From: Escherichia coli
GTDB lineage: Bacteria; Pseudomonadota; Gammaproteobacteria; Enterobacterales; Enterobacteriaceae
DNA length: 64,000 bases
Assembly: GCF_003334815.1 (NCBI RefSeq)
Contig: NZ_QOWO01000015.1
Strand: one strand, 5' to 3'
The number at the start of each line of letters is the position of its first letter. Position 1 is the stretch's first letter. The position numbers and the translations under genes are program-made. Below are positions 21,335 through 55,916 of the stretch, piece after piece. The notes beneath the pieces were generated by a model. It made no database searches. It was not told where the DNA came from and saw only the letters and a list, made by a program, of their open reading frames with translations.

Positions 21335-21470
21335 CCTCGTCGCATCAGGTAACCTTGCCGGTACCTGATGCGCTCCGAATTCTGTGGGTCGGATAAGGCG
21401 TCCACGCCGCATCCGACAGTCGAGCATCAATGCCTGATGCGCTTCTTATCAGGCCTACCGAACGCCCTGC
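21335..21470. repeat. REP element cluster downstream of ycfP
   Basis: Repeated GCCGGATAAGGCG / CGCATCCGAC / GCCTGATGCGC palindromic units. Confidence 0.55.
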
Positions 21471-21729
21471 ATACACCCCTCACTCTATATCACTCTCACA
21501 AATTCGCTCAAATAATAAACAATAAACTCTGTTTTTTGATCTCACCCGGTAAAGTCGCCTATCTTTTCAGCAACAAAACTTGATTAACATCAATTTTGGT
21601 ATGACCAATGCACCATTCATGTTATTCTCAATAGCGAAGAACATTTTCATTGCTGTAACCTGTTGTTAATTAAGAGCTATGTTAATAACCATTAATTAAC
21701 AATTGGTTAATAAATTTAAGGGGGTCACG

Positions 21730-23034
21730 TTGACTACGCCATTGAAAAAGATTGTGATTGTCGGCGGCGGTGCTGGTGGGCTGGAAATGGCAACACAGCT
21801 GGGGCATAAGCTGGGACGCAAGAAAAAAGCCAAAATTACGCTGGTCGATCGTAACCACAGCCACCTGTGGAAACCGCTGCTGCACGAAGTGGCGACTGGC
21901 TCGCTTGATGAAGGCGTCGATGCGTTGAGCTATCTGGCCCATGCGCGCAATCATGGTTTCCAGTTCCAGCTGGGTTCCGTCATTGATATTGATCGTGAAG
22001 CGAAAACAATCACTATTGCAGAACTGCGCGACGAGAAAGGTGAACTGCTGGTTCCGGAACGTAAAATCGCCTATGACACCCTGGTAATGGCGCTGGGTAG
22101 CACCTCTAACGATTTCAATACGCCAGGTGTCAAAGAGAACTGCATTTTCCTCGATAACCCGCACCAGGCGCGTCGCTTCCACCAGGAGATGCTGAATTTG
22201 TTCCTGAAATACTCCGCCAACCTGGGCGCGAATGGCAAAGTGAACATTGCGATTGTCGGCGGCGGCGCGACGGGTGTAGAACTCTCCGCTGAATTGCACA
22301 ACGCGGTCAAGCAACTGCACAGCTACGGTTACAAAGGCCTGACCAACGAAGCCCTGAACGTAACGCTGGTAGAAGCGGGAGAACGTATTTTGCCTGCGTT
22401 ACCGCCACGTATCTCTGCTGCGGCCCACAACGAGCTAACGAAACTTGGCGTTCGCGTGCTGACGCAAACCATGGTCACCAGTGCTGATGAAGGCGGCCTG
22501 CACACTAAAGATGGCGAATATATTGAGGCTGATCTGATGGTATGGGCAGCCGGGATCAAAGCGCCAGACTTCCTGAAAGATATCGGTGGTCTTGAAACTA
22601 ACCGTATCAACCAGCTGGTGGTGGAACCGACGCTGCAAACCACCCGCGATCCAGACATTTACGCTATTGGCGACTGCGCGTCATGCCCGCGTCCGGAAGG
22701 GGGCTTTGTTCCGCCGCGTGCTCAGGCTGCACACCAGATGGCGACTTGCGCAATGAACAACATTCTGGCGCAGATGAACGGTAAGCCGCTGAAAAATTAT
22801 CAGTATAAAGATCATGGTTCGCTGGTATCGCTGTCGAACTTCTCCACCGTCGGTAGCCTGATGGGTAACCTGACGCGCGGCTCAATGATGATTGAAGGAC
22901 GAATTGCGCGCTTTGTATATATCTCGCTATACCGAATGCATCAGATTGCGCTGCATGGTTACTTTAAAACCGGATTAATGATGCTGGTGGGGAGTATTAA
23001 CCGCGTTATCCGTCCGCGTTTGAAGTTGCATTAA
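21730..23034 (+). CDS. ndh: Type II NADH:quinone oxidoreductase (NDH-2), 434 aa
   Basis: FAD/NAD Rossmann motifs ([20 protein letters not shown]); the codon at the expected start is TTG, preceded by SD AAGGGGGT. Confidence 0.9.
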
Positions 23035-23243
23035 TCGACGTACACTGGCGGATGTGGCATAAACGCCTCATCCGCCCTTGAGGAACAGCGCGATCGGCAG
23101 CCGCGTTGTATCAGGCATCCTTTCAGACTCCTCCGAATCCTTAAGTATTTCCAGCCATTCCCGCGCTTTTCATCTTCTGTCTGATAGCTGCTTTTCTCCT
23201 TCGCTTGCATGATTGGCATAACTGCAAAGAAGGAGGTGTTCCC

Positions 23244-50767: not shown

Positions 50768-52018
50768 ATGGAAAGTAAAGTAGTTGTTCCGGCACAAGGC
50801 AAGAAGATCACCCTGCAAAACGGCAAACTCAACGTTCCTGAAAATCCGATTATCCCTTACATTGAAGGTGATGGAATCGGTGTAGATGTAACCCCAGCCA
50901 TGCTGAAAGTGGTCGACGCTGCAGTCGAGAAAGCCTATAAAGGCGAGCGTAAAATCTCCTGGATGGAAATTTACACCGGTGAAAAATCCACACAGGTTTA
51001 TGGTCAGGACGTCTGGCTGCCTGCTGAAACTCTTGATCTGATTCGTGAATATCGCGTTGCCATTAAAGGTCCGCTGACCACTCCGGTTGGTGGCGGTATT
51101 CGCTCTCTGAACGTTGCCCTGCGCCAGGAACTGGATCTCTACATCTGCCTGCGTCCGGTACGTTACTATCAGGGCACTCCAAGCCCGGTTAAACACCCTG
51201 AACTGACCGATATGGTTATCTTCCGTGAAAACTCGGAAGACATTTATGCGGGTATCGAATGGAAAGCAGACTCTGCCGACGCCGAGAAAGTGATTAAATT
51301 CCTGCGTGAAGAGATGGGGGTGAAGAAAATTCGCTTCCCGGAACATTGTGGTATCGGTATTAAGCCGTGTTCGGAAGAAGGCACCAAACGTCTGGTTCGT
51401 GCAGCGATCGAATACGCAATTGCTAACGATCGTGACTCTGTGACTCTGGTGCACAAAGGCAACATCATGAAGTTCACCGAAGGAGCGTTTAAAGACTGGG
51501 GCTACCAGCTGGCGCGTGAAGAGTTTGGCGGTGAACTGATCGACGGTGGCCCGTGGCTGAAAGTTAAAAACCCGAACACTGGCAAAGAGATCGTCATTAA
51601 AGACGTGATTGCTGATGCATTCCTGCAACAGATCCTGCTGCGTCCGGCTGAATATGATGTTATCGCCTGTATGAACCTGAACGGTGACTACATTTCTGAC
51701 GCCCTGGCAGCGCAGGTTGGCGGTATCGGTATCGCCCCTGGTGCAAACATCGGTGACGAATGCGCCCTGTTTGAAGCCACCCACGGTACTGCGCCGAAAT
51801 ATGCCGGTCAGGACAAAGTAAATCCTGGCTCTATTATTCTCTCCGCTGAGATGATGCTGCGCCATATGGGTTGGACTGAAGCGGCTGACCTGATTGTTAA
51901 AGGTATGGAAGGCGCAATCAATGCCAAGACCGTAACTTATGACTTCGAACGTCTGATGGAAGGCGCTAAGCTGCTGAAATGTTCAGAGTTTGGTGAAGCG
52001 ATCATCGAAAACATGTAA
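50768..52018 (+). CDS. icd: NADP-dependent isocitrate dehydrogenase, 416 aa, uninterrupted
   Basis: Full-length [41 protein letters not shown]... with a native C-terminus and terminator; no prophage junction. Confidence 0.96.
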
Positions 52019-52039
52019 TCTCTCCATGTGTTAAATATT

Positions 52040-52073
52040 GAAACGGGCGTATAACACGCCCGTTGTTTTATTT
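52040..52073 (+). terminator. icd intrinsic terminator
   Basis: Hairpin AACGGGCG-TATAACA-CGCCCGTT followed by GTTTTATTTA. Confidence 0.65.
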
Positions 52074-52120
52074 ATGTGGATATTATTAATAGCATATCGA
52101 GCATATTTATATGAAGCCCA

Positions 52121-52444
52121 TTACTTGAGCCCATATGGGCATATTTTTATAATGCAACTATTATGTAAACATTTATTTGTTATTTTGCTTTCTCCTGGAG
52201 GACACTCTTGACTGCTTTTGAGTAAACTCCATAAATCCTTGTTGAATGGTGCGATGTGATAAATAGTAATAGGATATTCTTTATCCTTAAGGATAATACC
52301 AGACTTAACCGGTGTAAATATACTGCCAGGAGGGAGAAATATAGTAGATTGATACCAGATGATCATTTTCATATTACCCCATATGGCTGAAAAAGATATA
52401 CCACATGTAGGTTGAATTACCGTGTCAATTACTATCCACTTCAT
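52121..52444 (-). CDS. iraM: Anti-adaptor protein IraM (RpoS stabiliser under Mg2+ starvation), 107 aa
   Basis: 107-aa [15 protein letters not shown]...CPYGLK recognised as IraM (YcgW); low-GC coding sequence. Confidence 0.85.
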
Positions 52445-53143
52445 TTGTTATGTCTTATCCCACGGTATTTAATATGGTTCATTAGGATGTTTATTTCTTG
52501 ATTTTGCATATGAGTATATTACCCCCCCCTCAAAAAAATAAATTAATTAAAATGATGGCTTATATAAAATAAAATTTAAAGCAAGGAATCTCAATGGATG
52601 TTAAACAAAATGAGATTTTGTGAAAGCAATAAATTATTGACTTCGTTTTAGATTTGTTTAGCTATAATGTTATACATTCAAATGACTGAACATCCTGTAA
52701 TTAAAACATAGCCTTTATGCTACTTTGTGCCAATTTGCTAAACATTATGGTTGCCTTTTTATATAACGATAATAATGAATATAAGCATGACATGAGAATA
52801 AGGTTTCAATTTTTGAGTTATATAGGAATGATTTAACCTGTTCCTGGCTAAAATACATATAACCGGATGATGACTAAACCAAAATACATGTGCGTTAAGT
52901 ATTGAAACGGACGTGTGGCACGGCCGTTGTTTTTATAAATATGTTAACCGTTATAAAATAACGTATCAAAAGTCAAGTGATCACATTTCAAATATCAAGT
53001 TGATAGTATTAGTCTGGTGATTATTTATGGGTGACAATAAAAAGACAGTATTAATCATCCATAGAGATAGTCTCTGCACTTTTATTTCCATTATGCTAAT
53101 GCCTTACTGAATTATGAAGCATTTCTTAAGTATCCAACTTTAG

Positions 53144-53548
53144 CTAGATTAATGGTTTATTATTTTCTACATCTTCAATATATAAAAGCGTATTATCAAT
53201 GGCGTAGTAACTGCGTTTGTTATGATTAACATCAGTAACCCACCGGAAAACGCCCGCGCCTGCCAGTGTTGAACAGTATTCCCGAAATGTAGATTTTCCG
53301 CAAATATGAAGCAATGCGGCCTCTTTTATTTTAGCAGGGTTCTTGGTCGTACTAACTTTTAACAGGTTCCTGGTTCCTCTTAATAACAAAACCGTATCAT
53401 CGTGAGTAATAATTCTGATGTTATCCGTAGCCAGATAATAAATGTAATGTGCAATACGGTGATGTTTTAATTCTGAATAAAACCAGGAGAAGTTTTGCTC
53501 TTTTCTCACTTGCTCAAACATCTTTTGAAAAACAACGACCTGATCCAT
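53144..53548 (-). CDS. ycgX: DUF1398 protein YcgX, 134 aa
   Basis: 134-aa ORF in AT-rich context, upstream of bluR in the remembered K-12 order. Confidence 0.8.
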   Translation of the reverse strand: MDQVVVFQKMFEQVRKEQNFSWFYSELKHHRIAHYIYYLATDNIRIITHDDTVLLLRGTRNLLKVSTTKNPAKIKEAALLHICGKSTFREYCSTLAGAGVFRWVTDVNHNKRSYYAIDNTLLYIEDVENNKPLI

Positions 53549-53768
53549 CAGGATAATAACCTCTTGTTAGTTGTGAGACTGCGTAGTGTGCACGATCGGT
53601 TTTACCACTTCAATCTGGTCTGTCCTTTGGCTGTGATATGTACAGAGTGTGATAGAGGGAATATCTGAATTCTCCCGGTGAGCATTTTGCAACGGACCAG
53701 CTCCGGTACAAACGCTGTTGTGGGTTCAGATTATAACATTCTGTCTAAGGGGCGGGATAAAGGTGAAA

Positions 53769-54500
53769 TTAGGGGGCATGAAAGATGACTTTATAACCTT
53801 GCTCACCCCAGTGTTGTAAAAGTTCGTTTTGCCTTCTCGTTGGTGCCATGCCTGTCCAGACAATCAATGTTTGCGTCGGGAACAGTTCCGGGCGCGGCGA
53901 TTCAATGGGATCAGCAAGAACAGAAATGTGCCATCCTGACAATGATAAACGCCATGCTTCCAGCCACAATCGTGCTCTCTCTTCAACATTCCACGCCATC
54001 AGAATGGCTTCTTTACCGGGCTTACGGCGCATTTCGAAAAGCGAGGTTGCTGCGTATTCAATTAATGCGCCGTCAAACATACTGCTCATAATGCGGGAGG
54101 TGTTGTGATCAAGCACGAGACGCTGGCGAACAGGAAGGTAAACATGATTAATCAATTGATCTACTGGGTACTCTCGACCCAGTGAAATAATTCTCGCGCG
54201 TAGTTTGGCAGGATTAGCCATGCGAAGAATTGACATCATCTCTTCTTGCAGGCGGCTCCAGTCATCTTCCGTATCCTGGCTGGTGGTTTCCAGTAATGCT
54301 TTAACTTTGCCTACAGGGACGCCATTACTTATCCAACGCTTGATCTCTTCGATGCGTTGTATGTCTTCTTCATCAAAGAGTCGGTGTCCGCCTTCACTGC
54401 GCTGTGGTTTTAACAAACCGTAGCGGCGTTGCCAGGCCCGGAGAGTGACAGGATTAATCCCGCAACGTTCAGCAACATCACCAATGCTGTAATAAGCCAC
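53769..54500 (-). CDS. bluR: MerR-family repressor BluR (YcgE), 243 aa
   Basis: N-terminal MerR HTH ([40 protein letters not shown]). Confidence 0.9.
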
Positions 54501-54550
54501 AATTCCTCCTTGCGGTCACAAATCTCCGTCGCCTGTACACGACCCAATAA

Positions 54551-54586
54551 TACTTTGTACAATATACGCTAAAATTGTACAAAGTA
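54551..54586. promoter_or_regulatory. Perfect 13-bp inverted repeat TACTTTGTACAAT-N10-ATTGTACAAAGTA upstream of bluR (candidate operator, or bluF terminator)
   Basis: Read directly; lies 51-86 bp upstream of the bluR start and about 120 bp downstream of the bluF stop. Confidence 0.4.
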
Positions 54587-54704
54587 TAAATAAGATTTCA
54601 GCTAAATTGGATGAAACATTATTTTTAATGTGGATTAAATTTAAACGTAACGTATTCATTTTCACGATGATTTACTGAAATCATGTGAAAGAATGTGCTG
54701 AAAA

Positions 54705-55916
54705 TTATTTTTTCTCTGGCCACGCTATGGAAGGGATACCATTCAATTTAGCTTTAGCAAACAGATCTCCCTGAAACATCTCAATTCCTGCGGATTCAAG
54801 CCACATCCACTCTTCTGGTGTTGCCACGCCCATAGCACTGACTTGAATTTCAAGTGATGTACAGCATTTTATGATCGCCTGAATAATTGCCTGCCGTGGC
54901 CCACTTTTATGAACATTGGTAATCAATTCCTGACTGATTTTAATTCTGTCAGGCTGGAAGCGTGACAGGAGTAACAAACCAGCAAAACCTGCGCCAAAAT
55001 GATCAATTGCTACACTGATACCAGCAGCCTTTAGCGATTTAATCGCTTCGGCAAACTCATCAAACCGAGATATGACTTCACTTTCAGTAAATTCAACGAT
55101 GATTTGTTCAGGCACCAGAGCATTGGCCTTTATTTCATTAAGTAAAAAAGAGACTGCGTCAGGTTCGTTAACCAGGGTCATAGGTAATAGATTGATTGAA
55201 ATCATTTTATCACCGAGCTCAAGTGCGTGTGCCATCGTGAATGCAAGCGCCTTACTTTTGAGATCCGCTGTGTAGATTTCCCCGTCTTTACGCTGCCCAA
55301 CCGCTATGGCTGATGGGCTATCTTCATTTTTTTGCACAATGGCTTCAAAAGCGATTATCCGCCGCGATAAGGGATCGACAATAGGATGAAAGGCAAAGTG
55401 GTCGTTTATAGTTGGTGAAAGGGCACAGGAATCAAGTTCTTTATCAGATCCGTCAGCGATAAAAAGCCAGGAGTCTTCGGCAGGGATCTCGAAATAGGTT
55501 GATTGTTCGGTTGCAAGGACAAAAGTACGAAAAAATTGTAGCGCTCTGTCATCATAAGTTAGCTGAAATTTTGATGTGCCTTTGTCGAATACGGCCTGTA
55601 AAACGTCATCTCGCTCGTGCAGGCGCAAATCAAATAATTCCATTCCCGCTTTGCCAAAACGGCGAGCAGGCGCGTAATCGCACAGCAGCTCAACAATATT
55701 ATAGTGCCGTGGATCCTGGCATATAGCCCGATATATCATTTTAACCTGTTCTTCCGGACCTTCCAGAAGCTGGAAAAAATGAGAACCATTAAACAGTAAG
55801 ATCCCTGTTACGTCAGACTGCATGTTCCTGCGATTTGCTATCGAAACCATTTCTTCGATTTTTTTGACAGGTTCGTCGTCACGTATATGGCTACGATAAA
55901 TAAGGGTGGTAAGCAT
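54705..55916 (-). CDS. bluF: Blue-light sensor BluF (BLUF domain plus degenerate EAL domain), 403 aa
   Basis: N-terminal BLUF domain (MLTTLIYRSHI...) and C-terminal EAL-like domain; start at the internal ATG giving 403 aa. Confidence 0.9.
   Translation of the reverse strand: MLTTLIYRSHIRDDEPVKKIEEMVSIANRRNMQSDVTGILLFNGSHFFQLLEGPEEQVKMIYRAICQDPRHYNIVELLCDYAPARRFGKAGMELFDLRLHERDDVLQAVFDKGTSKFQLTYDDRALQFFRTFVLATEQSTYFEIPAEDSWLFIADGSDKELDSCALSPTINDHFAFHPIVDPLSRRIIAFEAIVQKNEDSPSAIAVGQRKDGEIYTADLKSKALAFTMAHALELGDKMISINLLPMTLVNEPDAVSFLLNEIKANALVPEQIIVEFTESEVISRFDEFAEAIKSLKAAGISVAIDHFGAGFAGLLLLSRFQPDRIKISQELITNVHKSGPRQAIIQAIIKCCTSLEIQVSAMGVATPEEWMWLESAGIEMFQGDLFAKAKLNGIPSIAWPEKK

Follow-up and report, generated by a model that had tools for sequence, protein, structure and literature searches.

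The TTG codon at positions 21730–21732 (plus strand) is very probably the authentic, native initiation codon of Escherichia coli ndh (probability about 0.93), read as fMet by the initiator tRNA after the 30S subunit has docked on the Shine-Dalgarno (SD) sequence TAAGGGGGT. Positions are those of the window, by which we mean the whole 64 kb stretch of DNA that was analysed. The assignment draws on the sequence of the start region, the RefSeq CDS start, and conservation of the codon both within E. coli and among related species. It is an ordinary start, known since 1981, and is neither a mutation nor new.

The ndh CDS spans 21730–23034 on the plus strand and encodes a type II NADH:quinone oxidoreductase (NDH-2) of 434 aa, followed by a TAA stop. 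Our mechanical ORF list gave a 443-codon frame running from TTG 21703 to the TAA at 23032–23034, and the 434-aa NDH-2 protein is the translation from 21730. The identity of the gene is well supported by the reading frame, the annotation, homologs and solved structures. The translation contains two GxGxxG motifs (GGGAGG, residues 12–17, and GGGATG, residues 175–180), and close homologs carry PF07992/PF00070 (Pyr_redox_2 fold). Residues 4–384 align to the solved NDH-2 chains 9pxk, 5na1 and 4nwz. These alignments begin at residue 4–7, and the first β-strand of the Rossmann fold is predicted to begin just past the TTG start. An NCBIfam scan of Ndh yielded no model above its cut-off (the best was TIGR03169, at 145.8 bits against 310), which reflects the absence of a dedicated HMM and not any doubt about what the protein is.

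Between 21151 and 30322, the window is base-identical to the K-12-type record NZ_CP043203.1 in a k-mer comparison. The ndh product of that record is WP_000211045.1, named “NADH-quinone dehydrogenase”, and its RefSeq/PGAP CDS begins at locus position 3231 of our extracted locus L001, which corresponds to window position 21730. Because the CDS start of the K-12-type record maps there and the segment is base-identical, the RefSeq annotation uses exactly the TTG at 21730. The neighbourhood (nagZ, ycfP, ndh, ycfJ, comR) is also that of K-12. E. coli K-12 ndh (b1109) is the same gene with the same TTG and the same ycfP-ndh-ycfJ-comR order, and there is no difference at the locus. A 501-nt query over the ndh start matched all 5426 complete E. 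coli genomes, with the underlying feature given as “ndh: NADH-quinone dehydrogenase”.

The start codon itself was compared across E. coli using a 45-nt query (21708–21752) centred on the TTG. A megablast match requires an exact word of 28 nt, and every such word in the 45-mer must cover query positions 18–28 (21725–21735), so a match certifies TCACGTTGACT. The native 45-mer gave a megablast match in 5424 of the 5426 complete genomes, which is a lower bound for the exact codon region. Synthetic 45-mers carrying ATG or GTG in place of the TTG matched 0 of these 5426 genomes, even with E-values up to 10 allowed. With sensitive blastn, the native 45-mer was found in 5426/5426 genomes at ≥95% identity, including the two that lacked a megablast match. 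The weakest of those matches, in strain LI60C3, still reads ...GGGGGTCACGTTGACTACA... and has its CDS annotated from the TTG. Since the native 45-mer is nearly universal and the ATG and GTG forms match nothing, TTG is the species-wide state and not a variant of the present strain.

These counts bear directly on the possibility that ndh normally starts on ATG and that the TTG arose in this strain by mutation or through an error in sequencing. The earlier note had raised this idea tentatively. It has some initial appeal in that most E. coli genes do start this way (AUG ~83%, GUG ~14%, UUG ~3%; Hecht et al. preprint) and in that one metagenomic relative (L139, 94% identity) carries ATG. We consider that it can be dismissed almost entirely, given the tally of 0 against 5424 genomes, the RefSeq annotation, the TTG found in 26 other species loci (see below), and the naming of a UUG start in a title of 1981. 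The earlier note had posed two alternatives, namely that ndh truly uses a rare TTG start or that an A-to-T substitution had altered an ATG. The first is borne out by the RefSeq start, by no fewer than 5424 of the 5426 complete E. coli genomes, by Salmonella, Citrobacter and Pantoea, and by the 1981 title, while the second fails because ATG and GTG versions match no E. coli genome. The comparison with reference genomes that the note had proposed returned the same TTG, which makes the codon a normal conserved feature and refutes the substitution.

The paper that first gave the ndh sequence reportedly compared the DNA with the N-terminus of the purified enzyme. That paper, by Young, Rogers, Campbell, Jaworowski and Shaw (1981, Eur J Biochem 116:165–170), as it is listed in reference 27 of PMC3237581, bears the subtitle “UUG initiation codon”. 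Our literature search for experiments on the ndh TTG or on translation of ndh mRNA returned nothing relevant beyond this 1981 citation. “Start codon” matches in PMC9237125 and PMC5302844 concern other genes and were set aside.

Read directly from the window, the ndh start region is ...TTTAAGGGGGTCACGTTGACTACG..., in the order ...TTTAAGGGGGTCACG and then TTG ACT ACG CCA TTG AAA AAG ATT GTG ATT GTC GGC GGC GGT.... The SD TAAGGGGGT occupies 21717–21725 (plus strand) and ends 4 nt upstream of the TTG; within it, AAGGGGGT covers 21718–21725, and the spacer CACG (21726–21729) leads into the codon at 21730–21732. The earlier note had placed this TTG 5 bp after an SD-like sequence, and the codon does start 5 positions past the last SD base. 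A weakened form of the same SD would read TAAGAGAGT. Pairing between TAAGGGGGT and the 16S rRNA 3′ end is possible at all nine positions, one of them as G-U, and the computed duplex energy is −12.4 kcal/mol. This ranks second among the 50 mapped genes of the window, with only ycfJ stronger. The comparison set consisted of the 50 window genes whose annotated starts could be mapped (41 ATG, 7 GTG and 2 TTG, the latter being ndh and plsX); genes beyond 51840 and before 1907 were left out, because the absence of the e14 prophage and a 1-nt indel kept their starts from being mapped. As is looked for in a UUG-start gene, a start-capable codon thus stands at a functional distance (4 nt) from an SD of this strength. 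Across 24 orthologous leaders, the G-run of the SD and the T that follows it show little or no variation.

Only one in-frame codon upstream could compete. The earlier note had named the TTG at 21703 as the sole in-frame upstream alternative, and this agrees with our reading of the codons between the TAA at 21697–21699 and position 21730 (CAA TTG GTT AAT AAA TTT AAG GGG GTC ACG), which include no other start-capable codon. Translation from 21703–21705 (plus strand) would yield a protein 9 residues longer, and the codon is open and in frame in the window, in Escherichia and Salmonella, and in some Citrobacter and Pantoea. We nonetheless consider this start very unlikely. The sequence preceding it is A/T-rich and has no SD, the SD instead falls between 21703 and 21730, the codon sits within a conserved non-coding hairpin (described below), and the annotation leaves it unused. 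In a number of relatives it is either cut off by an in-frame stop or missing altogether. These are Citrobacter sp. Awk 4, Citrobacter sp. NCU1, C. sedlakii, the P. septica group, and the loci L114, L086, L095, L145 and L060.

Conservation beyond E. coli was surveyed in two ways. For the species survey, we searched a collection holding one genome per species with a degenerate DNA pattern for a 16-residue Ndh segment; this gave 27 loci, 26 of them with upstream sequence. The homologous codon is TTG in all 26 readable loci, which come from Escherichia, Salmonella, Citrobacter and Pantoea, and it is preceded by A/GAGGGGGT. The 4–5 nt between SD and start vary among these relatives (CACG, CACC, GCG, CTTG, TTTG, CCTTG), as do the synonymous sites of ndh codons 3–11. 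Deeper relatives were taken from a DNA-pattern scan of metagenome contigs because the protein homolog search listed only sequences of ≥84% identity. The pattern, for WKPLLHEVA, gave 120 loci with 35–100% identity to E. coli Ndh. Among the metagenomic orthologs of ≥76% identity (n = 12), nine start on TTG, two on GTG (L095 and L071) and one on ATG (L139), with the start codon at the same position in 12/12. Orthologs of ≤62% identity (for example, those of the MTHRIVIVGGG type) have a likely start that is mostly ATG.

The TTG is thus conserved across Enterobacteriaceae and Erwiniaceae, and no other in-frame start-capable codon is. Taken together, the two surveys indicate that it is an old trait of the enterobacterial lineage which has occasionally been swapped and is not universal in NDH-2. 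For a UUG-start gene one would also look for a start position that is kept in orthologs, and here it is kept in 26/26 species loci and 12/12 metagenomic ones. Many Pantoea carry a tandem TTG-TTG, which leaves the exact codon used in them ambiguous, and codon 5 is ATG in the P. septica group. Ndh ortholog entries have been deposited at 430, 434 and 435 aa (for example, P0009 and P0045–P0048, or loci L003 and L005). Gene callers disagree on the start of Ndh because the codon is non-ATG, and the locus serves as a small caution for automated annotation.

Initiation further downstream, at TTG 21742 (Leu5) or GTG 21754 (Val9), is as improbable as initiation at 21703. Both codons are in frame and start-capable, and the 430-aa ortholog entries are ones called from codon 5. 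However, the SD ends 16 nt upstream of 21742 and 28 nt upstream of 21754, beyond normal spacing in either case. Neither codon is conserved as a start, because relatives carry other codons there: at codon 5, S. arizonae has TTA, L139 has ATC and Pantoea has GTT, ATT or ATG, and at codon 9 many relatives have GTT or GTC. Were translation to begin at Val9, the first Rossmann β-strand would also be cut short, since solved NDH-2 structures align from residue 4–7. From the upstream stop to the first conserved domain element, then, there is no conserved in-frame AUG, GUG or UUG that could stand in for the TTG at 21730.

Why a respiratory dehydrogenase gene should keep such a codon is a separate question from whether it uses it. 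The three canonical codons AUG, GUG and UUG initiate at 10–100% of the AUG level (Hecht et al. preprint), and UUG being one of them makes it plausible that the TTG limits ndh translation, although this view, put forward in the earlier note, leaves out of account the unusually strong SD that accompanies the codon. Sub-optimal start codons tend toward compensation by a stronger SD (Belinky et al. 2017), and the strength of the ndh SD fits this published tendency. In the mechanism we envisage, the 30S subunit would dock on the strong, well-spaced SD TAAGGGGGT, the initiator tRNA would read the TTG as fMet, and the strong SD would make up for the weak codon, so that the two together may set a moderate, intermediate rate of initiation. 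The persistence of the TTG would then reflect at least weak selection, or no selection for more Ndh, rather than error. The TTG may have been selected to cap Ndh synthesis.

The TTG could also be a real start that has no adaptive meaning, a historical accident of the enterobacteria that is tolerated because the strong SD yields enough Ndh. We regard this as quite possible, at somewhat less than even odds. The existence of ATG (L139) and GTG (L095, L071) in close relatives indicates that switching is viable and that the TTG is not obligatory, so its upkeep could be nearly neutral; distant NDH-2 genes mostly start on ATG. According to Belinky et al. (2017), start codons are under weak selection that generally favours AUG, notably in genes that are both conserved and highly expressed. 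The weakness of that selection is in keeping with an accident, but given its direction it would be somewhat surprising, if neutrality were all, that a conserved gene has held on to UUG for so long. Also weighing against an accident is the T at the first position of the codon, which is retained in 21/24 diverged leaders beside spacer and synonymous sites that vary freely. This suggests some constraint on the codon.

Upstream of the gene, we could place the main elements of the ndh promoter region. The FNR box TTGATTAACATCAA (21580–21593, plus strand) fits TTGAT-N4-ATCAA perfectly and is alone in doing so within the 64 kb. The FNR site of ndh is published as lying at −50.5 (PMC3688515), which would put the transcription start near 21637 and give a leader of ~93 nt. 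By direct reading, an extended −10-like element, TGTTATTCT, lies at 21620–21628 (plus strand), upstream of that presumed start. A simple sigma-70 and terminator scan of the window called neither the ndh promoter nor a terminator after ndh, so placement of the promoter relies on the FNR box and the published −50.5. A degenerate FNR-like box, TTGATCTCACCCGG, can also be read at 21536–21549, 44 bp upstream of the FNR box. The PdhR-box consensus is ATTGGT-N3-ACCAAT, and the only match to it in the window with ≤1 mismatch is the PdhR-box-like TTTGGTATGACCAAT at 21595–21609 (plus strand). According to PMC10572922, which cites Ogasawara 2007, ndh is a reported PdhR target.

Inverted repeats flank the gene on both sides. 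In the ycfP-ndh intergenic region, REP-like repeats of the GCCTGATGCG / CTTATCAGGCCTAC type are found at 21341–21462 (plus strand). A GC-rich inverted repeat, either REP-like or a terminator hairpin, lies at 23047–23076 (plus strand), 13 nt past the ndh stop. It has 12-nt arms that are 92% complementary and a 6-nt loop. It is without a T-run and was not called by the terminator scan.

The ndh leader contains a conserved imperfect hairpin, or palindrome, at about 21657–21708 (plus strand), which ends 9 nt before the SD. It was detected by an inverted-repeat search (21656–21709, 25-nt arms, 80% complementary), it is present in both the MFE and the centroid folds, and it recurs in the alignment of the 24 orthologous Enterobacterales leaders. 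The consensus structure, which has 18 pairs including the mini-stem described below, leaves 95.8% of the cells in that alignment paired. Seven of its pairs have two-sided changes. Several other changes are from C-G to U-G, and judged from the alignment these are compatible with pairing in RNA rather than with a palindrome in DNA. The structure beats 500 of 500 shuffles and all slid controls, although it was derived from the same sequences. An Rfam search over the leader, at the gathering threshold and at a permissive E-value, returned no family and only sub-threshold, hairpin-like noise. We also considered the palindrome as a PdhR box and ruled this out, as the best match to the PdhR consensus is the one in the promoter at 21595–21609.

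A 4-bp mini-stem may form around the start codon itself, between GGUC (21723–21726) and GACU (21732–21735), and would span 21723–21735 on the plus strand. The indication from the 24-leader alignment is weak. Its pairs are nearly invariant, which makes covariation uninformative for it. Codon 2 is ACT in 22/24 leaders, though threonine has four codons. The TTG, the strong SD, this GGUC/GACU mini-stem and the leader hairpin could conceivably make up a candidate translational control module, a proposal that we hold to be speculative and rather unlikely. If it were true, the module would adjust how much Ndh is made to the condition of the translation machinery (e.g., the IF3:ribosome ratio or how fast the cells grow), or else to some unknown RNA-binding factor, and it would act independently of the well-studied transcriptional control by FNR, PdhR and Fis.

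Several observations were made elsewhere in the window. It is K-12-like, with about a dozen small differences from NZ_CP043203.1 over positions 1–51840. It is without the e14 prophage, which in K-12 MG1655-type records interrupts the 3′ end of icd, and, as e14-free strains do, it runs on from ~51840 to 64000 into the region of ycgH, pdeG and bluF. The gene plsX (3266, plus strand) has the only other annotated TTG start in the mapped part; unlike ndh, it has a modest SD (−6.2 kcal/mol). Two Rfam families scored above the gathering threshold, the rne5 element of the RNase E 5′ UTR (36–372, minus strand) and the SraB sRNA (2234–2402, plus strand). The fabH gene (4404–5357, plus strand) is annotated as a pseudogene with an internal stop in NZ_CP043203.1. 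The window differs there at one site, at ~4593–4617, and the window copy may be the intact one.

Set beside UUG-start genes in general, ndh shares the near-cognate start, the use of initiator tRNA and the need for a good SD, and it fits the pattern of SD compensation. It differs in that its UUG has been kept across two Enterobacterales families, which is longer than would be suggested by a site that is weakly selected and easily improved. The infC gene, with its AUU start and IF3 autoregulation, is likewise a housekeeping gene with a conserved non-AUG start, and we mention it as an analogy only. IF3 discriminates against non-AUG starts (Hecht et al. preprint), but the UUG of ndh is canonical and far less discriminated against than the AUU of infC.

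For the purposes of a genome scan, this is a negative result, in that the ndh TTG is neither a lesion nor peculiar to this strain, and it does not come from faulty annotation. What may be previously unreported is the survey itself, in which TTG proved to be fixed in no fewer than 5424 of the 5426 complete E. coli genomes and retained across Enterobacteriaceae and Erwiniaceae, with ATG as the usual start in more distant NDH-2 genes. Biologically, ndh stands as a textbook-type case of a respiratory enzyme gene in which a near-cognate start codon goes together with a strong SD.
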